A stretch of 41,169 bases of DNA from a virus: positions 1 through 41,169 of IMG/VR virus record IMGVR_UViG_3300005824_000019; one strand, written 5' to 3'. Numbering within the stretch: position 1 is the first letter of the stretch; every line of letters starts with the position of its first letter. The notes under the pieces were generated by a model. It worked only from the letters and a program-made list of their open reading frames with translations, had not been told where the DNA came from and did no database searches. Of this stretch, positions 1 through 40,736 are shown piece after piece. A program made the translations under genes and the position numbers.

Positions 1-120
1 CCGATCATGCCCTGGGTCATCTGCTCGTCCAGGGTGGAACGCGAACGATCGCCCAGGAAATTGGAGGAGAAATTGAAGCGTTTCGGGTGGCCGGAGGCGG
101 ACAGCATATCGCCCTGGTTC
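1..120. repeat. Terminal direct repeat. Bases 1-120 are identical to 41050-41169, consistent with the assembly overlap of a circular or circularly permuted genome (unit length 41,049 bp).
   Basis: Compared base by base: 'ccgatcatgccctgggtcatctgctcg...catatcgccctggttc' occurs at both ends. Confidence 0.95.
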
Positions 121-833
121 ATCACCTTGTCGTACATAGCCATATTGCCGGTGACGAATCGGCCACCGATCGGGTGCGGCATCTTGTAGCTGGCATCGGG
201 CGGGGACAGCCCCTGGTTCTGCAGGAAGTTGCCGTAGGTCGCCATCAGCATGTTGCTGCCAGGATCTGCGCCGCCGGTGGTGGCCGCCATCGCGTCGGCG
301 AAGCGTTCCTTGAATTTCGCCATGCCCTGGACCGGGCCCAGCTCGTTGATGAATGCGTCCTGGAGCTGCCCCATCGCGTACCAGTCCCGAGCGTCCGGGT
401 TCTGGTTGCCGCGGTCGAACGCCTCGGACAATGCGCCACGCACCTCCGGCGTATCGAACTGCCCGGCGTACTTGTCGATCGTCGCCTGGGTCTTCGGGAT
501 CGCGTCGGTCAGGGTATTGCCCTGCAGGTTGTAGCTGCTCGGGTCGGCGTAGTAGCGATCCGCCTCGGGGAACATCGGGTCGTAGAGACCGGGCTCGATA
601 ATATTCTTGTTGATCGCCGTGCGGACCTTCTGGAGGTTCTTCTCCTCCTGTGACAGGCCCTTGCCCAAGTATTCCTTGTTCTTCTTCTTGTCGTATTTCA
701 GCAGCGGGTCGCCGAGTTCCGGGTACTGCTGCGCCAGCTTCGCCTGGTCGATCGGGTTCTTGGCGAAGACTTTCGCAATGCGTGCTTCGGCTGCATCAAA
801 CAGGGCACCGACACCCTTCGAGTAGTTTGGCAT
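1..833 (-). CDS. N-terminal part of a 381-aa presumed internal/ejected virion protein. The ORF wraps through the window ends (833->1, then 41049->40737).
   Basis: The ATG at 833-831 shares a base with the TAA stop of the upstream gene (TAATG) and follows SD GGAGGA. I translated 833->1 by hand without meeting a stop (MPNYSKGVGALFDAAEARIAKVF...VMNQGDMLSASGHPKRFNF). It reads through the 120-nt repeat into the ORF listed at 40737..41156. It is absent from the ORF track because it runs off the window edge. No family recognised. Confidence 0.8.
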   Translation of the reverse strand, partial: MPNYSKGVGALFDAAEARIAKVFAKNPIDQAKLAQQYPELGDPLLKYDKKKNKEYLGKGLSQEEKNLQKVRTAINKNIIEPGLYDPMFPEADRYYADPSSYNLQGNTLTDAIPKTQATIDKYAGQFDTPEVRGALSEAFDRGNQNPDARDWYAMGQLQDAFINELGPVQGMAKFKERFADAMAATTGGADPGSNMLMATYGNFLQNQGLSPPDASYKMPHPIGGRFVTGNMAMYDKVMNQGDMLSASGHPKRFNFSSNFLGDRSRSTLDEQMTQGMI

Positions 834-3660: not shown

Positions 3661-4743
3661 CTACCAATATCCGTAGCTTTGTCCGTTCCAGCCGCCGCCG
3701 AAGTTAGGGTTGACACCGCCACCGCCACCGCCACCCTGGTTGAACATATTGAACAGGGCCATGCCGGTCTGCGCGCCGTTCATCGCGTTCGAGAAGCCGG
3801 TGTTCGTACCGCCGCCACCAGGTCCGCCTGCGCGGAAGTAGTTCACGCCCTGCATCTGCCGGTTGAACTGATCCCAGGGCTGGTTCTGGTTGAAGTCCCA
3901 GCGCGCCTTCTCGGCGTCGACCAGGCTCTGGTCGTAGGCCTGCTGCTGCCCGCCTGCCAGGTTGCCCATGTTGAGACCGCCCTGCATGATCTGGTGGGAG
4001 TTGTTCAGCAGGTTACCACCCAGCTGCGCGTAGTTGCCGTAGTTCCGCAACAGGTCGCCCTGCATGTTGTTCGCGCTCTGGAGGTTCTGGCCGCCGGCAC
4101 CATACGCTGCCTGGTTGGCCTGGTTCGCTGCGTTGGACCAGATTCCGCTGGCGGTGTCGGCAGCACGATCCTGCAGACCGCGGGAAGCAATCGCGCCCTG
4201 GTTGAAGGCCTTGGTGCCGAAAGATCCACCGGACCCAATCGAGCCCATGTTGATGCCGGGGAGTGTCTGCTCGTTGAACTGCCGGGTCGGGTCCCGCATG
4301 GCGGCGTCGTACTGCCCCTGCATGCCGGGTTGCAAGTTGCCCATCACCTGGTCGTAGGTTCCCTGGTCATACTGGAACTGATTCGGTCCGCCCTGGCGCA
4401 GCTGGTTCATGTAGTCCAGGCCGCCGCCCATGCCCTGCTGCAGGGCGTTCGCGCCTGCCAGGCCTTGCATGGCCGCGTTGTTGTACCCCATGCCGCCCTG
4501 CTGGCCGTAACCGGCCATGCTCTGCAGGTTCTGCTGCAGGTACGGGTTCATGCCCGCGACGGTGTCCTTGTTGAAGTATTCGGGGGCCTGGATGTCCCAC
4601 ATATTGTTGCCGGCGTTCTGCCAGTCTTGCTTCATCCATTTTGGAATGTAATTTCCAGGCCCGAAGTTTTCCTGGCCACCGCCGCCTGTCAGTCCTCCAA
4701 TTACGCCACCAGCTACGGTTGATCCTGTTGCTGCCCAAGTCAT
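3661..4743 (-). CDS. Gly/Gln/Asn/Met-rich low-complexity protein (360 aa), presumed internal virion protein.
   Basis: ORF with ATGA overlap to the upstream gene at 4740-4743. The sequence is dominated by G, Q, N, M and A throughout and ends '...NMFNQGGGGGGGVNPNFGGGWNGQSYGYW'. Confidence 0.7.
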   Translation of the reverse strand: MTWAATGSTVAGGVIGGLTGGGGQENFGPGNYIPKWMKQDWQNAGNNMWDIQAPEYFNKDTVAGMNPYLQQNLQSMAGYGQQGGMGYNNAAMQGLAGANALQQGMGGGLDYMNQLRQGGPNQFQYDQGTYDQVMGNLQPGMQGQYDAAMRDPTRQFNEQTLPGINMGSIGSGGSFGTKAFNQGAIASRGLQDRAADTASGIWSNAANQANQAAYGAGGQNLQSANNMQGDLLRNYGNYAQLGGNLLNNSHQIMQGGLNMGNLAGGQQQAYDQSLVDAEKARWDFNQNQPWDQFNRQMQGVNYFRAGGPGGGGTNTGFSNAMNGAQTGMALFNMFNQGGGGGGGVNPNFGGGWNGQSYGYW

Positions 4744-5228
4744 TGTCCTGCCTCCTGCTCCAGCTGGAGCCTGTCGTACTTCTCAAACGATTCCGCGATG
4801 ACGTACTCCTCGAGTGCTTCCAGGTCTCGAGTCTCGTCCAGGTTCGGGTGGATGGTCAACCACTCGGTGTCCTGGAGGGCGTACACTGCTCGCTTTGTAC
4901 CGGGCTCGCTGATCCAGATCCGCGGCCCCTCGTATAGCTCGTCGCCGAACTCGGTCACCACCTTGATCAATCCGCGGGTGATGACGTTAAGGTGCGCGTG
5001 CTTGTGGATCTTGCCGACAATAACATGGCCGGCGGGGATGAACATCTTGCGACCATACACGGAGGGAGCGAAAAAATGCTCGACCAGCTCGGCGGTCAGT
5101 TGTTCACCTGATTTGGCGTCGGGTAGCTCGCGGATCGCCCGCTCCAGGTTCAGTATATCCTGGCGCACCGGCTGTGGCCGGCCTACCTGATAGCTGAAAC
5201 TGGCGCGTATTTCCACGACTACCTCCAA
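4740..5228 (-). CDS. Cupin-like (double-stranded beta-helix) protein, function unknown.
   Basis: Contains 'PAGHVIVGKIHKHAHLNVITRGLIKV', which resembles cupin metal-site motif 1 (HxH...), plus a later 'ISEPGTKRAVYA'. The track start is TTG at 5228. A GTG at 5216 lies 4 nt after SD GGAGGT and may be the real start. Confidence 0.45.
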   Translation of the reverse strand: MEVVVEIRASFSYQVGRPQPVRQDILNLERAIRELPDAKSGEQLTAELVEHFFAPSVYGRKMFIPAGHVIVGKIHKHAHLNVITRGLIKVVTEFGDELYEGPRIWISEPGTKRAVYALQDTEWLTIHPNLDETRDLEALEEYVIAESFEKYDRLQLEQEAGQ

Positions 5229-5283
5229 TAAAATTAGTTGCCCCGTTTCTGCACCAGGTGGGGCGGCCCTGGAAGGAGCCCTA

Positions 5284-5952
5284 TCAGAGGGCTGCAGTTT
5301 TCTTACGACGTGACCACAACAGGCCCAGCAGGCCGATGCCCATCAGCGGCATCGTCGCGGCTACAGGAACCTGTGCGCGAAACGGCTGCACGTCGGTGAT
5401 ACCGAACACGAAGTCGTTGTAGTCCTGGTCACCACCACCGAACTGGTCCTCGATGCCGACCACGAAGTCGAACACACCGGCCAGGCCCGTGCTGCCCACA
5501 GTATCGAACACCGCGAAGTGATCGAACCCGTCGATGTTCAGGGTCGGGTCAGAGTAGAACGTGCCTTCCGGGCTGGTCAGGAACACGCCGAATATCGGAT
5601 CGACCACCGCCAGGGTGGTGGCACCGATAGCGAACTGCCCAGCGGTGTAGCTCAGGGTGCGACTGGTGCCGACCGAGTCTGCGCCATTGAAGACGGTCAA
5701 CATGCGGCTGGGATCAAGCCAGTCGTAGATCCCCACCTCGTTCACACCGGCGTAGCCAGCAGACTCCAGAAAGATGAAGGCATTGATGTCATCGTTGATG
5801 CCATCGGTATCCGTCAGCTGGAAACCAATAACACCGGCGTCAGCCAGCGGATCTGCGCCTACCACCAGGGTGTTCAGCATCGGTGTTGACATTGCCATCG
5901 GTGCGACCGCCAGGGCGATCAATGTAGTAAATGTTGCGATTAACTTTTTCAT
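5284..5952 (-). CDS. Secreted DUF4114-like protein with an exosortase-type (PEP-CTERM / VPLPA-CTERM-like) C-terminal sorting signal.
   Basis: - Signal peptide: 'MKKLIATFTTLIALAVAPMAMS'.
- Core: 'FGVFLTSPEGTFYSDPTLNIDGFDHF...IEDQFGGGDQDYNDFVFGITDV', matching the DUF4114 signature as I remember it.
- C-terminus: 'VPVAATMPLMGIGLLGLLWSRRKKTAAL' (short motif + TM helix + basic cluster).
- Own SD AAGGA. Confidence 0.6.
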   Translation of the reverse strand: MKKLIATFTTLIALAVAPMAMSTPMLNTLVVGADPLADAGVIGFQLTDTDGINDDINAFIFLESAGYAGVNEVGIYDWLDPSRMLTVFNGADSVGTSRTLSYTAGQFAIGATTLAVVDPIFGVFLTSPEGTFYSDPTLNIDGFDHFAVFDTVGSTGLAGVFDFVVGIEDQFGGGDQDYNDFVFGITDVQPFRAQVPVAATMPLMGIGLLGLLWSRRKKTAAL

Positions 5953-5963
5953 GGTTTTTCCTT

Positions 5964-6140
5964 TTAAGAGATTGAGGGAACTTGCGATCCCATATCATCG
6001 CCGGCACTAGCAGGACGGCGAACATCACTATAGCTTTCAGCACGGTATTTTTTCTCCAAACGCATCATGTAAATACTGACCCCGATGCAGGTCAGACCTA
6101 CAACGAGCAGAATGATCATACCGATGTCGTCCGGGGTCAC
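5964..6140 (-). CDS. Small membrane protein (58 aa). It falls below the ORF-track length cutoff.
   Basis: Hand translation from a GTG 6 nt after SD AGGAGG gives MTPDDIGMIILLVVGLTCIGVSIYMMRLEKKYRAESYSDVRRPASAGDDMGSQVPSIS*. The TAA stop lies 11 nt before the ATG of the next gene. One clear TM segment. A competing +1-frame ORF (5840..6043) also encodes a TM-like segment. Confidence 0.4.
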   Translation of the reverse strand: MTPDDIGMIILLVVGLTCIGVSIYMMRLEKKYRAESYSDVRRPASAGDDMGSQVPSIS

Positions 6141-6231
6141 CGTGCACCTCCTGAACTTATCTTATCCATGTGTATCTCCTTGTTGGGTTTAATTTTTCCC
6201 CCGTAGGGGCCCCTCCATGATACCTATTTCG

Positions 6232-7587
6232 CTACCCCAGGTACATGATGTAGTCAATGACGAAGTAGGGCTGCATCGTCGAGACCGTCGTCGTGTGGTT
6301 GTGGCCACCGGCGGAGCCCGAGCTGGCGGTGTGGCTGTGGCTGCCACCATTGGCCGCGACCGTGATCGTGTGGCTGTGCGCTGCGACGGTGTTGGTGTTC
6401 CCGTGGTTGTGGGCGGATGTCCCGCCGGCGGGTGCCGTGGCACCGATCCCGGACCCAGAGGCGGTGGCCTGCATCTTGTAGGCCCGGTTGTTGCCGACGT
6501 TATCCCCGAAGTAGGTGAGCCTGGAAAGGCCGCCTGGCGTGCCGCCGTCGCCGTTGGTGGACGCCGACAGGAACATGCCGTGCCCGTGCTGCGGCATCTC
6601 GGCCTGCGACAGGGCGTGCGACCCGGTGGTGTGGCTGTGCCCGCCGGCCGTCGCGCTGGTGGCGGTGTGGTTGTGGGTGCCGCCCGTGGCGACAGTCACC
6701 GTGTGGGTGTGGTTGGCGACGGTATTCGAGGTACCTGCGGCCGTCGTGGCACCGCCGGTCGCGCCCCGGGTGTATCCCGAGCCCGAGCCCAGTAGCGTGC
6801 GCCCTGTCAGGTTGGGGGTGCCGTTCTGGCCATCGCACAGGAACCAGCCCGCGGGGTACGCGCCAGGGTCGCCGAAGTAGGCGCGGATCTCGCCGATGAT
6901 GAACCCGCTCTCGCCGGCGGGACCCTGGGGTCCTTCCGGGCCGGTCGGTCCCCTGGGGCCCTCCGGGCCTTCCGGTCCCCGCTCACCCTGGGGCCCCTGA
7001 GCCTGGCCACGGTTGACCCAGTAGCCGGATTCCGTCCAGCTCAACAGGTCGCCAGCGGTCACCTCGACCGGCTGGCTGCCGGTGGTGACCGTGCCTGAAT
7101 CTGTAATCACCCAGGAGTCGCCCACGTTAATCAGGCCGACGTCGATTGCGTTGGCCTGGGCCACCGTCGCCTGGCCGATCAGGGTGATGCCGGAGCCGGT
7201 GTCGCCCTGCTCGCCCTTCTCGCCCTGGGGTCCGGTGTCACCCTTGGGTCCTTGCGGGCCCAGAGGGCCCTGGACGCCCTCTGGTCCCTCCACGCCCTGC
7301 GGGCCTTCCGTACCTGGTGTGCCGGCCGGGCCCTCTGGACCGATTGCTCCCTGGGGCCCTTGCGGGCCTACCGGCCCGACTGGACCGATGGGGCCCAGCG
7401 GGCCCTGGGGACCGGTGTCGCCCTGGAGACCTTGCTCACCGCGCAGCCCCTGGGGACCGATTGGGCCTGGTACGCCCTGCTCGCCCTGGGGTCCTTGGAT
7501 ACCACGCGGACCCTCTGGCCCTTCCGGGCCGACAGGACCCGGCGGGCCCTGGGGTCCGCCAGTAGTTGCTACCGGTGTATCACTCAT
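6232..7587 (-). CDS. Collagen-like tail fibre with a C-terminal phage tail-collar (MdpB-like) domain.
   Basis: About 130 aa of uninterrupted G-X-Y repeats ('[28 protein letters not shown]...') plus a second G-X-Y stretch. Collar motif '[23 protein letters not shown]'. His-rich ladder '[50 protein letters not shown]'. Confidence 0.8.
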
Positions 7588-7808
7588 GACCCGCTCCGGT
7601 TTATCGTCATAGAGTTATCCTCCACGGCGTCGCCGTGCTCGACGCGGACCTGAACGGTGCACTCACCCTCGGGCGTAGCGTGGACGTCGACCTCCCATCT
7701 CCTGTCGGCCGTGTCCCTGGTCGCGAGTCGTGTGCAACCACTGAGCACGATGACCGTGGTGAACATCATGACGAAGATGACCAGGAACTGTCGCGTACTT
7801 TTATCCAT
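7584..7808 (-). CDS. Small lipoprotein (74 aa) nested in the fibre operon.
   Basis: '[25 protein letters not shown]' is a signal peptide with lipobox L-S-G-C. TAATG overlap with the upstream gene (7808) and ATGA overlap with the downstream gene (7584-7587). Confidence 0.7.
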
Positions 7809-9615: not shown

Positions 9616-10262
9616 CAGAACGGTCCGTTATCTTCCCACAACGTGCTGTTAGCCGGGGTCGGCTCCCATACATTGGCAGCGACCAGGCTGGTCCACAGGT
9701 GGACCTCTGTGAATTCCGCGGGCTGGTGGGTGACCTGCACCCCGTCGCCGTAGGCGTCTTCCGATCCGAGGGGTTGCACCCAGGGCTGCGGCCCCTCAGA
9801 TATTGGAACGTAGAATTTCCATAGTGCTGGCGTGACCGGCGGTGCCCATTGCGCCTGGGTTGTGTGCGCCTGGATGCACTCGTACCCGGTGTTCTCGTAG
9901 ATGCGGATGTCACCGACAGATACCGCCACACCGACGGCCCACAAGGGGTATGCTTCCTGCCAGGGTCTGCCGGTGCTCACAGTCGGTTGCGCCAATTCGG
10001 CGATCCGCGCATCCAGCTGGGCCTCGATGCTTGTCTGGTCTTCCAGGTCGATGACCCAGTCGATACAGTCCAGCTCGGTGACGTCCTGGTACGGTTTATC
10101 AGCAGGTGAGTAGTCTCCAGGAATGCGCGTACCGCGCCCGCTCAACGTCGCCGATAGTGTCTCCTGGTTCTTGGTCGCGTTCCACAGGACCAGGTTGATC
10201 CGCCCGGGAGTACCGTCGGGGTTCACACTGAACCTGGTCTCTATAATGTTGTAACTGATCAT
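9615..10262 (-). CDS. Fibre protein with CBM5/12-like (chitin-binding type) carbohydrate-binding repeats.
   Basis: 'WAVGVAVSVGDIRIYENTGYECIQAHTTQAQWAPPVTPALWKF' fits the CBM5/12 pattern (W..G..Y..GD.V.Y.G..Y.C...H.....W.P.....LW). A weaker second copy is 'YGDGVQVTHQ...LWTSLVAANVWEPTPANSTLWED'. I chose the ATG at 10262 (MISYNIIE), 4 nt after the upstream TGA. The track start at 10352 overlaps the upstream gene. Confidence 0.55.
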   Translation of the reverse strand: MISYNIIETRFSVNPDGTPGRINLVLWNATKNQETLSATLSGRGTRIPGDYSPADKPYQDVTELDCIDWVIDLEDQTSIEAQLDARIAELAQPTVSTGRPWQEAYPLWAVGVAVSVGDIRIYENTGYECIQAHTTQAQWAPPVTPALWKFYVPISEGPQPWVQPLGSEDAYGDGVQVTHQPAEFTEVHLWTSLVAANVWEPTPANSTLWEDNGPF

Positions 10263-10266
10263 CAGA

Positions 10267-11364
10267 TCACCCCGTGACGAAGTAGATAGTGTTGGCTTCG
10301 GGCGTGCCCGGGAGAGCGTCCACCACCTCGAACTTGTTTGTCTGCGCGCCATGCACCCCGTTGATCTTGAACAGCCCGGTAATCGACCCGTCGGGCCACA
10401 GATTCATAATCTGGGTCAGCTTCGTTTCCCCTTCGAAATTCACGTTGAACCGCATGTAGGACGGAGTGTTGCCTACTGTCCAATCGGACGCGGCGTTGCA
10501 GATTATGCGACCGCCGTTGGTTACTAACCCGCTCGGATCATTCCCTCTGAAGTCGATGCGGCCCAACGTCTGCCCGCTAGGGATTACACTGGCACCGTTC
10601 TCACGGGTCATCGTCATGGTGCCAGCTTCGTTATCCCCCTTCACATCGAGGACGGGCGCGTCGGCACTGAGTATTTCCAGCTTCGCCTGCGGATTGAGCG
10701 TGCCGATACCGACCAGGCCCTCCGCGGTAAACGTCACCCGCTCGGTCCCGTTGTAGGTGTATCGCATGCGGCCGGTGGCTATGTCGTGCTGGATTCCCCA
10801 CCTGTTGGTCTCGGCGGCGTCCCACAGGGCGAGGGTGGAGCCCGTGTCGTCGGAGATGCGAATCGTGCCTCCGTATAAACTACCCGCTACATGCAGCTGG
10901 TTCTTCGGGTCGGGCGTGCCGATGCCGACGTTACCGGTGTTGGTGTTGACGATGTCATCGGGAAGCGTGCCCGCCTCCCAGCCTATGCCGGTGTCGCCCT
11001 TCACGCCCTGGGGACCTATCGGGCCCTCTGGACCTACCGGGCCCTCCGGACCTACTGGACCGGTGTCACCAGGTATGCCCTGGATACCTTCGGGGCCTTG
11101 TGGCCCCTCATCGCCCTGGGGCCCTTCCGGGCCTGTCTGACCAGTCGAGCCCTGTTCACCCTGGGGGCCCTGGATACCCTGCGGTCCCGTGGGGCCTTCC
11201 GGTCCGACAAAGTTATAGTCCAGGGTGACCCAATCGGTCACGCCGTCGCCCACCTTCGCCTGGAGGGTGTCGGTCTCCAGGCCCATCTCGCCCTGCGCCA
11301 GGACGGGATTGGCCGTGGTCCAGTTGGCCGCGGTGTCGCGCCGTAGTTGAATTATCGAAGCCAT
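10267..11364 (-). CDS. Collagen-like tail fibre with an Mtd/HylP-type N-terminal domain.
   Basis: N-terminus '[45 protein letters not shown]' is the widespread fibre N-terminal motif (major tropism determinant N-terminal-like). It is followed by about 75 aa of G-X-Y repeats and a globular C-terminus. Confidence 0.7.
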
Positions 11365-38248: not shown

Positions 38249-38559
38249 TATCGGCCCCTCCGCCAGGGGTTCTGCGATACGCGCTCGCCCCACTTCTGCA
38301 GGCCCTTACCGACGCCGTAGCCGAGCCCGCCACCCAGGCCGGCGTTGATCAGTCGATCTGTGGGGTCCTCCTGGTAGTACAGGGCACCCTCGGCTGCGGC
38401 GGTGGCTCCAGCACCCAGCGGGCCCAGGGTGCCGTACAGCGCGCCTGTGGCCAGGTAGGGCAGCATACTGCCTGCCATAGTCGCTCCGACGTACTCGTCC
38501 TCCACAGGCGCGAACACGCGGTCGTTGGCCTTCTGCCGCGCCTGGTTCTGCCGCGCCAC
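38248..38559 (-). CDS. Gly/Ala-rich ORF (103 aa from a GTG; 76 aa from the ATG at 38478). It lies in the -1 frame relative to the 3' tail of the 795-aa gene, and its status is unresolved.
   Basis: Coding-like sequence ('ARQNQARQKANDRVFAPVEDEYVGATMAGSMLPYLATGALYGTLGPLGAGATAAAEGALYYQEDPTDRLINAGLGGGLGYGVGKG'). It ends in TAATG coupling to the next gene. The ATG at 38478 lies 5 nt after GGAG. Confidence 0.45.
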   Translation of the reverse strand: MARQNQARQKANDRVFAPVEDEYVGATMAGSMLPYLATGALYGTLGPLGAGATAAAEGALYYQEDPTDRLINAGLGGGLGYGVGKGLQKWGERVSQNPWRRGR

Positions 38560-40736
38560 TCCTCGTCGATGCCCAGGGCGGACCCGAACAGGTCCCGGGC
38601 CCCGGTGATCAGCTTGTCGGTCTCCTTGCCGGCGGCCAGGATACCCGCCTGCAAGCTCTCAGGGAGCCCTCCCAGGGCCCCTTCCATTAGGGCGGGGCGT
38701 TCGTACATCCAGGCGTCGGGGTCCGCCAGGGGCGCGCCAGGCTGCCCTGTGCCGTAGTCGTAGGCCTGGGCCTCCTGTGTGTCTGTAAGAGCACCCAGGC
38801 CCACTGCCGCGGCTGTACCGCCTGCCAGTATATTTTCAGAACCCGGGTCCTTGAACTGTGCGTTGACTGACCGGATGCGTGCCGGGTCATGGGTCGCCTG
38901 GGCGATCACCCCGTCATCCTCCTTGAACCGGAAACTGTCGTAGCCCATACCCTGCAGGTCGAACAGCAGACCGGTCTCAGGGTCGTCCAGGATCTCCCAG
39001 TCCATGTCCAGCTCCGGGTCGTACAGGTAACTGTCCCGCCTGGGCGCATCATCCCCCAACATTTCATCCCAGAAATTCTGTGCCTCGTCTGGGCCATGAC
39101 CATCCATCTCGGCCCGGTTTGCCCAGCCGCCTTTCTCATTGAACAGGTCTATGGCGAGCTGCCTGTGCTCTGGGTTGTCTACCATGTCCAACTGGTTGCC
39201 GGGGCGCATGTACAGCGGCATCACGTTGGCCCCCTCCCGAACACCGGCGAACATCGAGGCGTAGTCTGGGTCATCTTCCGCTGCGTAGATCATCCCAGCG
39301 CGACCAGGATCGAACGCCTCGATGTCGTTGGCGGTGCCGTGGAACAGCCGCCTGCTTGTATCAAACCCTTGCTCGGCAGCACGGCCCAAGCGATCGGCGA
39401 CGTACTTGCCGCTGTCAGGTATGACCGTCGGGGGCTCGCGCCAGGCATTATCCTCGCCGAGGGAGTTGGCCGGGTGCTCTCCGAATGCCGGGGACACCTG
39501 GCCCTCGTCGAACGGGCGGAACTCCACCTGGTCGTAGTTGTCACCATACCCGGCGGTGATGCCGCCGTCGTAGCCGTTGGCCTTCATCAGCTGGATAGTC
39601 TCGGGGTCGTTGAAGACCTCGAAAGCTGGCACGTCCAGCTGGCGCAGGGCGTCGTCGGGCAGCTGGTCGATGCTGTCCACGCCGTACTCCTCCAGCATAT
39701 CGTCGATGTACTCTGACTCGTTCAGGCCGGCCAGGTCAGTGAACACCTTCTTGGCATGATCGAACCCGGTGGCCTTCTCCAGGTCAGTGAACGGCAGAAA
39801 CGGGTCCTCCGGGTTGTTGATCACCGGGTTGTCGATACGCACGTTGGAAGGGTAGACGCGCGGCTGCACTGGTACGTCGCTGCTTACATTCGGGCTCATG
39901 GCGTAGTGGTTAGCCGTTTTGGCGTCGCCGAAGGATAGCGCGCCCAGGCGCGTTTGGAATTTCTCGCCAAGGTCGGCGAGCGCGCCGTGCTCCCCGCGGA
40001 ACGCCCGGTACAGGGGCATCGCCTCCGCCTCCTCGGTATCAGACAGCGCGCCAGCACCGACTGCCGTCGCCGCCAGGGCGGGGACATATCCTTTCCGTTT
40101 CTGCAGGTTACGGAGCCTGGGCAGGTCCTCGGAGCCAGAGCCCCTGTTCAGGTCCCGTACTTCTGCGTCGTCCAGGATACGGTTCACCCGCATATCGCCG
40201 CCGATCAACCAGTCCCCGGTCATGTTGGGGTTGGTCTTGTATCGGTAGTGGCCACCGTAGGGCACCTGGTCGGTGATGTGTGCTGTTCTCGATAGGGGCT
40301 TACCCGCCTTGGTCATCTCGGCGCGGCTGTTGGCCACCTTCTGCCAGTCGACTATGCCGGGCATCTCGATCTCGGCCCACACCTGGTCGTCGGGGCGGTA
40401 GTTGGGCTTCGTCGGGATCTTGCCGTGCTCGGTGGCCTTGCCGCCGATGTGGGTCGCCAGGGGATACTCGCCCGCGTGCCAGCCCGGGCGATACGCCAGG
40501 GGCCCTATGCTCGACTTCACCTTGCCGGTGTCAGTCAGTGCGCCGGCCTCCGCCTTGAGCCACTCGCCCAGGGGGACCTTCTGGTCGGCATTGACGAATA
40601 GCGGGAACAGGTCGTCGCCCTTCTTGCGGAACAGCTTGTAGGCTTTGACAGGGTCGGCTGTGGCGTCCATCAGCTCGTCGGGGTCCAGGCCGGCAGCCTT
40701 GAGCATGCGGGCCAGAGTGCTGGTGTATTTGGACAT
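38349..40736 (-). CDS. Large multidomain presumed ejected protein (795 aa as read) with two tandem ART-like (ADP-ribosyltransferase, polyvalent-protein type) modules. This assignment is a hypothesis.
   Basis: - Module 2: 'RRLFHGTANDIEAFDPGRAGMIYAAEDDPDYASMFAG...GYDSFRFKEDDGVIAQATHDPARIRSVNAQF'. This is an H...Y...E-like layout resembling 'FHGT...YF...E..vF.p.qI.S'.
- Module 1 (paralogous): 'MPLYRAFRGEHG...LSFGDAKTANHYA...GYDGGITAGYGDNYDQVEFRPFDEGQV'.
- The final ~70 aa (RGRTRRGRRPTTACSRLW...) look non-coding. Confidence 0.55.
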   Translation of the reverse strand: MSKYTSTLARMLKAAGLDPDELMDATADPVKAYKLFRKKGDDLFPLFVNADQKVPLGEWLKAEAGALTDTGKVKSSIGPLAYRPGWHAGEYPLATHIGGKATEHGKIPTKPNYRPDDQVWAEIEMPGIVDWQKVANSRAEMTKAGKPLSRTAHITDQVPYGGHYRYKTNPNMTGDWLIGGDMRVNRILDDAEVRDLNRGSGSEDLPRLRNLQKRKGYVPALAATAVGAGALSDTEEAEAMPLYRAFRGEHGALADLGEKFQTRLGALSFGDAKTANHYAMSPNVSSDVPVQPRVYPSNVRIDNPVINNPEDPFLPFTDLEKATGFDHAKKVFTDLAGLNESEYIDDMLEEYGVDSIDQLPDDALRQLDVPAFEVFNDPETIQLMKANGYDGGITAGYGDNYDQVEFRPFDEGQVSPAFGEHPANSLGEDNAWREPPTVIPDSGKYVADRLGRAAEQGFDTSRRLFHGTANDIEAFDPGRAGMIYAAEDDPDYASMFAGVREGANVMPLYMRPGNQLDMVDNPEHRQLAIDLFNEKGGWANRAEMDGHGPDEAQNFWDEMLGDDAPRRDSYLYDPELDMDWEILDDPETGLLFDLQGMGYDSFRFKEDDGVIAQATHDPARIRSVNAQFKDPGSENILAGGTAAAVGLGALTDTQEAQAYDYGTGQPGAPLADPDAWMYERPALMEGALGGLPESLQAGILAAGKETDKLITGARDLFGSALGIDEEWRGRTRRGRRPTTACSRLWRTSTSERLWQAVCCPTWPQARCTAPWARWVLEPPPQPRVPCTTRRTPQID

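Follow-up and report, generated by a model that had tools for sequence, protein, structure and literature searches.

The DNA analysed here, of 41,169 nucleotides (nt), is the IMG/VR virus record IMGVR_UViG_3300005824_000019; this whole stretch, hereafter called the window, is a complete podovirus-like phage genome. On its minus strand, at positions 5284-5952, it carries a gene for a three-part protein composed of a putative signal peptide, an all-beta core with a DUF4114 domain, and a C-terminal tail of the PEP-CTERM class. The analyses point, with a probability of roughly 0.6, to an exported lectin that would be sorted by an exosortase of the host and would bind exopolysaccharide (EPS) or a surface glycan of the infected cell.

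Architecture of the predicted protein

The open reading frame (ORF) had been placed at these coordinates by a sequence-only reading of the window, which also gave it a Shine-Dalgarno sequence of its own, and both assignments were confirmed. A protein identical to the product (P0001) was present on three contigs. The features of the gene and of its 222 amino acids (aa), including the predicted transmembrane (TM) helix, are the following, all on the minus strand:

5284..5952, minus: gene of the lectin pre-protein, 222 aa, stop codon included, ATG start, both Pfam domains above their gathering thresholds (ORF list, sequence)
5959..5963, minus: Shine-Dalgarno sequence AAGGA, 6 nt before the ATG of the lectin gene (read from the sequence)
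5887..5952, minus: putative signal peptide, residues 1-22, with MKK, a hydrophobic core and AMS/TP (hydrophobicity, AlphaFold, alignment)
5374..5886, minus: all-beta lectin-like core, residues 23-193 (AlphaFold, Foldseek)
5413..5451, minus: putative two-calcium/sugar-binding loop E168-D169-QFGGG-D175-Q-D177-Y-N179-D180 (BLASTP to LecB, conservation)
5287..5373, minus: whole sorting tail, residues 194-222 (purifying selection in comparison with the homologue P0016)
5359..5370, minus: sorting motif V195-P196-V197-A198, at the V-P-E-P position (alignment)
5311..5358, minus: C-terminal TM helix A199-S214 (hydrophobic segment 195-213, AlphaFold helix 200-221)
5299..5310, minus: basic cluster R215-R-K-K218, a putative cytoplasmic stop-transfer element (read from the sequence)

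The N-terminus (MKKLIATFTTLIALAVAPMAMS/TP) is built like a Sec signal peptide: MKK forms the n-region, a hydrophobic core follows, and small residues make up the A-M-S site. The cleavable-looking signal peptide of the sequence-only reading was borne out by a Kyte-Doolittle hydrophobic segment at residues 4-22, by a helix at residues 2-19 that stands apart from the core in an AlphaFold model built on 29 homologues, and by the alignment of these 29 homologues, where the A-M-S site coincides with the A-x-A sites of the relatives. Cleavage would probably take place after residue 22.

The AlphaFold model (predicted local distance difference score 87.6, predicted template modelling score 0.79) showed an all-beta core at about residues 24-193, with strands from 41 to 193, and helices at the N- and C-terminal sides. 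The DUF4114-like core proposed earlier, which ends in GGGDQDYNDFVFG, passed the Pfam threshold in a profile search: the DUF4114 model (PF13448) matched residues 130-185, corresponding to positions 5398-5565, with 34.5 bits against a gathering threshold of 27, and the same domain is precomputed for all 31 homologues of the first homology search. Foldseek returned as best matches in the Protein Data Bank (PDB) the two-calcium lectins LecB/PA-IIL, CV-IIL and RS-IIL (probability 0.94-1.0, E about 1e-3, TM-score on target 0.41-0.58), with malectin next in the ranking. In a library of viral structures the sole matches were DUF4114 proteins of giant viruses, and no tailed-phage protein was matched.

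The acidic loop at the end of the core has the family consensus EDxxGGGDxDYND. BLASTP aligned window residues 164-182 (VVGIEDQFGGGDQDYNDFV) with residues 91-106 of LecB (LVGSED---GTDNDYNDAV; sequence verified against PDB chain 1OUR_A), with 11 of 19 positions identical. Residues E168, D169, D175, D177 and D180 are invariant in the 29 homologues, and for N179 invariance is limited to two sub-alignments of closer relatives. The calcium and sugar ligands of LecB, which we take to be E95, D99, D101, N103 and D104, have E168, D175, D177 and D180 as their aligned counterparts in the window protein. The two-calcium fucose/mannose lectins of the LecB/PA-IIL type (1GZT, 1OUR, 1UQX, 2BOI) thus have the fold and the ED...D-x-D-Y-N-D loop in common with the core, whereas they are soluble proteins of 114 aa with neither signal peptide nor sorting tail, compared with a core of about 170 aa here, and their similarity in sequence is confined to the loop. 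A sequence-profile search of the PDB sequences did not reach LecB, so the likeness rests on fold and loop and not on family membership. From the model we infer a LecB-like calcium-type glycan-binding module, which would bind a sugar as its ligand. The DUF4114 domain has been proposed as a calcium-activated EPS- or sugar-binding module in PilY1.1 of Myxococcus xanthus (PMC9109919), and experiments identified it as the part of the Acanthamoeba mannose-binding protein that binds mannose (PMC11934332).

The C-terminus has the tripartite layout of exosortase sorting signals (short motif, TM helix, Arg/Lys cluster), as stated in the sequence-only reading, and this layout is present in all homologues. 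In the homologue alignment P196 never varies and V195 is conserved to at least 90%, L203 and G207 of the tail helix are invariant, and the basic cluster is conserved in every homologue. The Pfam PEP-CTERM model (PF07589) matched residues 194-216 with 22.7 bits, above its gathering threshold of 20.7. The suggestion that the VPVAA string is closer to the VPLPA-CTERM variant did not hold, as the corresponding model (TIGR03370) gave no match for the window protein even at E<=10, and canonical relatives reached a weak 17 bits, below the cut-off of 25.35; this assignment was rejected.

A census of the motif in the 150 best family representatives, all of which have a recognisable tail, showed P-E-P directly before the helix in about three-quarters of them, while nearly all others keep P-x-P in the form of VPLP, VPVP, VPAP, VPIP or VPTP. 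Proline-less tails recur only in phage-linked sequences, namely as VPVA in P0005, P0016 and P0063 and as VPVI in P0006; the canonical VPEP is kept by the phage-borne P0007, P0008, P0033 and P0034, and other phage members have VPVP or VPAP. In the window protein only the first proline of the Pro-Glu-Pro signature is retained. Judged by sequence, the tail is a rare variant of the PEP-CTERM class (P-E-P to P-V-A) and not a canonical PEP-CTERM tail, and the very similar tail of P0122 (VPVPATMPLFGMGLMGLAWLRRRK) suggests that VPVA derives from VPVP.

Family, mobility and cargo exchange

The first homology search returned 31 homologues of the same size and three-part layout. With a threshold of E<=1e-30, a profile scan of 1.84 billion representatives revealed 611 clusters (50% identity), and with E<=1e-10 it revealed 3,089, the matches being mostly full-length proteins of 220-270 aa. 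The shared layout of these homologues and the size of the tailed family indicate that the resemblance is not due to chance.

Distant members, 41-48% identical to the window protein, are located on bacterial contigs (P0013 from a Deltaproteobacteria metagenome-assembled genome, P0018 and P0019) and are annotated as 'DUF4114 domain-containing protein'. They are neighboured by other PEP-CTERM proteins, UDP-glucose dehydrogenase, glycosyltransferases, Wzy_C, CapK_C and an AsnB-type amidotransferase, which is a classical EPS/PEP-CTERM locus; the check for bacterial homologues proposed by the sequence-only reading thus led to loci of the expected kind. These small bacterial DUF4114 and PEP-CTERM proteins are alike in length (about 220-250 aa), in the three-part layout and in the invariant calcium loop. 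They have the canonical VPEP motif, EPS-gene neighbours and mostly no overlapping small ORF, and in these respects the window protein differs; it falls in a separate clade that was seen only on phage-like or short metagenomic contigs. In a scan of the GTDB species representatives the best match was 47% identical, in Deltaproteobacteria metagenome-assembled genomes, and no close bacterial donor was found.

The closest members, 55-81% identical, are located on phage-like contigs that otherwise have little or nothing in common with the window. Relatives were found on at least six other phage backbones, at differing positions in the late region and always co-oriented with late or structural genes. 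A second phage-borne clade, that of contigs L091 and L097, was found with P0016 as the query. The positions of the gene in these phages are as follows:

L004 (P0006): upstream of an SU10-type portal and capsid gene
L005 (P0004): before the head-tail connector genes
L003 (P0009): surrounded by small genes
L091 (P0033): on a 46-kb contig, between a LamG/Gly-rich protein of 2,854 aa and a protein of 3,417 aa, the latter comparable in size to an N4-type virion RNA polymerase
L097 (P0032): immediately behind a large terminase gene

Scans of IMG/VR with alignments of clade A and clade B gave no match, and a broad alignment gave a single one, which is distant and shorter: the 17.8-kb viral contig L096 (IMGVR_UViG_3300048580_000159) encodes at about 9720-10270 a protein of about 183 aa with a signal peptide, DUF4114 and a VPEP-CTERM tail. 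Searches by tblastn with the window protein, P0033 and the L096 protein against deposited phage genomes gave no match.

The sequence-only reading had described the gene as a host-derived moron. The varied positions among phages, and a cargo that differs at the same locus in contigs L010 and L094 (see below), agree with a moron; a recent capture from a host is contradicted by the best bacterial match of 47% and by a base composition ameliorated to that of the phage. The gene has a GC content of 0.59 and of 0.74 at third codon positions (GC3), like the neighbouring phage genes, and so is not a fresh acquisition. The same reading had named the confinement of homologues to phage structural modules as evidence against itself; many of the close homologues do lie in such modules, but not all, and the differing positions from phage to phage fit a moron and not a conserved virion part. 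The distant bacterial match, the phage-like GC and GC3 values and the nearest relatives on phages together indicate a cassette of ultimately bacterial type which is phage-adapted and moves from phage to phage.

Two syntenic relatives showed how the locus changes. In contig L010, the gene downstream of the cassette encodes a protein 70% identical to the 158-aa protein encoded downstream of the lectin gene in the window (4743-5216), and the cassette protein of L010, P0016, is 41% identical overall to the window protein. The DNA homology between L010 and the window (76% over 427 nt, blastn) starts exactly at the first codon of the tail, position 5373. Within the tail 21 of 25 residues are identical (QVPVAATMPLMGIG...LLWSRR.K), nine of these residues being encoded by synonymously changed codons, whereas all 11 residues just before the tail differ. 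Since the residues were kept despite nine synonymous changes, the tail is under purifying selection, and the similarity does not reflect a recent exchange of DNA. In the second relative, contig L094, an upstream fragment matches the C-terminus of the fibre gene of the window, and the same locus downstream of the fibre gene encodes at 292-900 a protein (P0063) with an unrelated, non-DUF4114 cargo core. The signal-peptide and tail DNA of P0063 is 95% identical to that of P0016 in L010 (595-1305), with nothing shared between these two ends. The locus in this phage lineage thus consists of constant export and sorting ends around a variable cargo, and this arrangement indicates that cargo is swapped by recombination at the conserved ends.

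Other observations concern the surroundings of the cassette in these contigs. Another secreted protein is encoded downstream in L094 (902-1258). In L010 (3-497) and in L005 (1-90) the gene upstream of the cassette ends in one and the same motif, EFYWDE..RLYDV[KR]*, which, together with the downstream gene shared by L010 and the window, shows mosaic relations around the cassette. In L091 the cassette is flanked by lipoprotein-like ORFs at 9716-9904 and 10666-10875 (lipoboxes MLNGC and AVAC), and in L097 a 94-aa signal-peptide protein is encoded beside it (4549-4833), which suggests small 'envelope islands' around the cassette in other phages.

A conserved, phage-associated small ORF was found to accompany the cassette, and this is a new finding. 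In the window it overlaps the start of the lectin gene in another frame, and equivalent ORFs were present in all eight phage loci carrying the cassette:

5840..6043, minus: overlapping 67-aa ORF (MLKAIVMFAVLLVPAMIWDRKFPQSLKRKNHEK...) of the window, GTG start, +2 frame relative to the lectin gene, 113-nt overlap, not called by JGI
L094: 198-422
L010: 504-716
L004: 97-354
L005: 94-312
L091: 9925-10116
L003: 4178-4456
L097: about 3775-3985

The 67-aa product contains a TM helix, the string W-D-R-K-F-P-Q-S and a basic tail. The equivalent ORFs begin 76-172 nt before the lectin ATG and run 107-143 nt into the lectin gene, and seven of the eight have the motif [WY]-x-[RK]-[RK]-[FY]-P-Q-S-x-[KR]-R-K after the helix, L003 being the one without it. 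The KRK-H-E part can be explained as a purine-rich ribosome-binding site followed by ATG-AAA read in another frame, whereas the helix and [FY]-P-Q-S, which lie upstream of that site, cannot. Over six loci the codon-position mismatch was 0.58/0.51/0.74 and second positions had 44% T, which is the signature of a frame coding for a membrane helix. A comparable ORF was seen in only two of the 11 bacterial homologues with an inferable start; the one-sided Fisher test of 8/8 against 2/11 gave p of about 6e-4, or about 0.005 when the weak L091 helix was left out, values that are indicative only since the loci are not independent. The small ORFs had no match in PADLOC, PHROGs, Pfam or NCBIfam.

Proposed role and competing explanations

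The reading favoured here, with the probability given above, is that the protein would be made from the late (structural) gene block and exported by the Sec system of the host, and that the C-terminal helix and the RRKK cluster would then hold it in the inner membrane. From there it would be handed over to a host exosortase. An analysis of hydrophobic segments found no multi-pass membrane protein on the coding strand of the window and hence no candidate exosortase, so the phage lacks an enzyme of its own and depends on that of the host, in support of what the sequence-only reading had supposed. Genomes that contain PEP-CTERM proteins also have exosortases and EPS loci; the enzyme presumably cuts these proteins at the P-E-P motif, after which they reach the cell surface or the exopolysaccharide matrix. 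At this place the lectin core could bind EPS or a surface glycan of the host. The most likely benefit would be that EPS is retained or cross-linked on infected cells, masking the receptor against superinfection and against the loss of progeny on debris; alternatively or in addition, the infected cell might be kept within a floc of susceptible neighbours. The placement beside receptor-binding genes and the nearby small proteins directed to the envelope (7584-7808 in the window, the flanking ORFs in L091) favour EPS retention or receptor masking. The overprinted small membrane-protein ORF and the PEP-CTERM cargo gene would form a two-gene mobile cassette moving between unrelated phages.

Several known systems resemble parts of this proposal. 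One of them is PepA of Zoogloea resiniphila and Aquincola tertiaricarbonis (NCBIfam NF033554, floc_PepA), which is a secreted PEP-CTERM protein like the proposed product. The floc_PepA model matched residues 89-219 of the window protein (E 7.6e-7) with its positions 136-261, that is, with the C-terminal half of the core and the tail; at 29.2 bits the match is far below the cut-off of 80, so the protein is no equivalog of PepA. The N-terminal half of PepA is unlike that of the window protein, and PepA is encoded by a chromosomal, RpoN-regulated gene of the host. PepA keeps EPS on the cells and causes flocculation, the kind of activity put forward for the window protein; its overexpression in Aquincola lowered soluble EPS, raised bound EPS and restored flocs, and its signal peptide was functional (PMC9850573).

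With respect to its placement, the cassette resembles T5 Llp, phi80/T1 Cor and lambda Bor and Lom, small exported proteins encoded beside tail or fibre genes, and may by analogy be compared with them. These are non-virion proteins that alter or mask surface receptors of the infected cell. They are lipoproteins or outer-membrane proteins delivered by Lol or Bam, whereas the window product is a PEP-CTERM-tailed, lectin-like protein, and we know of none among them that uses an exosortase signal or a lectin domain. A PEP-CTERM protein (HOG10) has been described on Dehalococcoides IME1, a putative filamentous or budding virus (bioRxiv 10.64898/2026.09.15.751708), and no other report was found in which a virus-like mobile element carries a PEP-CTERM domain. 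Compared by description only, HOG10 differs in belonging to an integrative element that is not a tailed phage, in a host without a Gram-negative outer membrane, and in having no DUF4114. One paper on a cultured phage lists a DUF4114 protein without further detail, and in the searchable literature no report was found of exosortase-type cargos in tailed phages.

Several results weigh against the proposed role. The stricter PEP_CTERM model of NCBIfam (TIGR02595) gave 14.1 bits for the window protein, below its cut-off of 16, a model that the relatives P0033 (22.2) and P0013 (24.7) pass, and the second proline, kept in about 148 of the 150 family representatives, is lost here, VPVA having been seen once among them. 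The change from P-E-P to P-V-A and the sub-threshold score leave it uncertain whether an exosortase would cleave the tail. A homology search with the 40-aa tail gave no candidate host protein with the same tail. A back-translated pattern of the tail (VPVAATMPLMGIG) retrieved only the sibling contig of the window from JGI metagenomes and nothing from IMG/VR. The calcium site of LecB uses the C-terminal carboxylate (Gly) of a neighbouring subunit, and the 30-residue tail that follows the domain here leaves no free C-terminus, so that completion of the site in the LecB manner is impossible. Neither a promoter nor a terminator of its own was recognised for the gene, as no sigma-70-like promoter was found in 4600-6600 and terminator-like sites did not exceed those of shuffled sequences; the mark of an independently expressed moron is therefore missing. 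Finally, late expression close to lysis would leave little time for remodelling the surface against superinfection.

Four other explanations were considered, taken here in descending order of weight. The loss of the second proline would be accounted for if the protein were an exosortase decoy or a permanently anchored variant, the tail docking on the enzyme or staying in the inner membrane uncleaved; sorting of host PEP-CTERM proteins would then be jammed, so that the matrix is loosened and virions escape, or a tethered periplasmic lectin would disturb EPS export. We hold this to be unlikely, although it is the main rival. In its favour, all other proline-less tails are phage-linked (P0005, P0016, P0063, P0006), VPVA itself is under purifying selection and thus a maintained state and not decay, and late expression fits an effect at or after lysis. 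The clade is, however, not defined by an uncleavable motif, as P0007, P0008, P0033 and P0034 keep VPEP and other phage members VPVP or VPAP; a pure decoy would need neither the conserved lectin core nor the calcium loop, and the swapping of cargo implies that the cargo matters. In addition, the VPEP motif's function is undefined, and the residues needed by an exosortase have not been experimentally established (PMC9850573). A quite different view takes the protein as a virion-associated adhesin, a minor structural or decoration protein sticking to EPS, whose terminal hydrophobic segments are not export or sorting signals. The gene does lie in the late structural block between fibre and ejection genes, other phages also carry it always in structural regions, and lectin-like domains are common in phage receptor-binding proteins. 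Such a role is nevertheless improbable, since phage and bacterial members alike retain the signal peptide, the TM helix and the basic cluster, the gene is placed differently in each backbone, the unrelated cargo of P0063 bears the same ends, no phage protein family or structure was matched, and Sec-exported proteins are separated from virion assembly in the cytoplasm.

Involvement in lysis, with the small TM ORFs acting like holin and antiholin and the doubly anchored protein modulating the envelope, appears very improbable. It would be in keeping with the fact that no endolysin, holin or spanin was recognised genome-wide in PHROG and Pfam scans of 40 ORFs, with the two small TM ORFs directly upstream, one of them overprinted on the gene, and with the lipoprotein gene nearby (7584-7808), but against it stand the lectin-fold core, the bacterial homologues in EPS loci and the insertion of the cassette at varied sites unrelated to lysis modules, and there is no adjacent lytic enzyme. 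Least probable of all is a selectively neutral passenger, that is, a bacterial gene acquired by accident without any role for the phage. The role of the gene is so far a proposal and cultured phages lack it, both in favour of a passenger; yet at least eight phage loci have kept the frame intact, purifying selection acts on the tail, the base composition has been ameliorated to that of the phage genome, and a phage-specific partner ORF is conserved alongside it.

The proposal of a host-sorted lectin can be extended, tentatively and with clearly less confidence, to tailed phages of exosortase-bearing bacteria in general. These phages might exploit the host exosortase pathway as a delivery platform, by means of a mobile cassette with a host-matched PEP-CTERM tail and exchanged cargo, in which VPVA would be a phage-specific tuning (another fate of cleavage, or interference with the exosortase) and the small ORF an unrecognised sorting partner. 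Exosortase/PEP-CTERM sorting is widespread in environmental, floc- and biofilm-forming Gram-negative bacteria, and it is still poorly understood with regard to what the PEP motif does, to the acceptor and to where the cargo ends up. Phage-borne substrates, with the tail kept, the cargo swapped and variant motifs selected, would serve as natural experiments on the specificity of the signal. They point to an undescribed route by which phages may alter the matrix or surface of infected cells, with a bearing on activated-sludge flocs, biofilms and phage receptor masking, and the gene may be used as a host-range marker, as the host would have to possess an exosortase.

Neighbouring genes and the phage genome

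Upstream of the lectin gene lies the AT-richer stretch pointed out by the sequence-only reading, and the ORF list and hydrophobic segments agree with its claim that small TM ORFs are encoded there. In addition to the 67-aa ORF, the features of this interval are:

5953..6231, no strand: AT-richer spacer from the fibre gene to the lectin gene, GC 0.47-0.51 against 0.625 for the window (composition profile)
5964..6140, minus: 58-aa single-TM ORF, GTG start, strong Shine-Dalgarno sequence AGGAGG, called by JGI (also in L001 and L002), TM segment at residues 6-24

The 58-aa ORF overlaps the 67-aa ORF by 80 nt, and its GC3 of 0.52 compares with 0.65-0.90 in other genes. It has no counterpart in L094 and no family match in library scans, and it may be a recent insertion or a miscall.

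The lectin gene had been placed between the last fibre gene and the genes of internal proteins. This is correct as to the fibre gene upstream (6232-7587) and the DNA-ejection protein genes downstream (3661-4743 and 833-2392), but a 158-aa gene intervenes at 4743-5216. This gene, on the minus strand directly downstream of the cassette, has a GTG start and a GGAGG Shine-Dalgarno sequence, and its product matches the PHROG families 'short tail fiber' and 'tail fiber adhesin' (E 6e-32) and no Pfam family. The intergenic sequence 5217-5290 (minus strand) is conserved with L010 1296-1370 and shows an apparent compensatory change (CCAGG..CCTGG against CCGGG..CCCGG); a conserved downstream hairpin or terminator was rejected, as folding was no better than that of shuffled sequences (z = -1.0 and +1.6).

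The gene at 6232-7587 (minus strand) encodes a collagen-like tail fibre with Gly-X-Y repeats, the C-terminal region of which has many H-x-H repeats and may be a metal-binding or beta-helical repeat; the GC content reaches 0.70-0.75. Next to it, at 7584-7808 on the same strand, is the gene of a predicted 74-aa lipoprotein (lipobox VLSGC), whose start and stop overlap its two tail/fibre neighbours. This protein, which had no family match beyond one weak and probably spurious PADLOC match, is a candidate o-spanin or a candidate receptor-blocking lipoprotein of the Cor/Llp type.

All long ORFs of the window are on the minus strand; among their products are the small and the large terminase, the portal and scaffold proteins and the major capsid protein, together with several collagen-like tail fibres, a LamG-type protein, proteins of DNA ejection and a DnaB-like helicase. 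The capsid protein is about 35% identical to those of uncultured Caudoviricetes and PaP3-type Pseudomonas podophages. No nucleotide relative of the window was found among 50,697 deposited phage genomes, and a tRNA scan of the window found none. Positions 1-120 recur at 41050-41169, and a gene of about 380 aa spans the junction (about 831..1 joined to 41049..40737, minus strand), the linear ORF list giving its C-terminal part as 40737-41156; the 120-nt terminal repeat and the gene across the junction indicate that the genome is complete or circularly permuted. Adjoining the ejection-protein genes, the ORF at 38349-40736 (minus strand) encodes a protein of 795 aa that bears an ART-PolyVal domain (ADP-ribosyltransferase of polyvalent proteins; 32.1 bits, gathering threshold 31.2), which may be an injected host-modifying enzyme.

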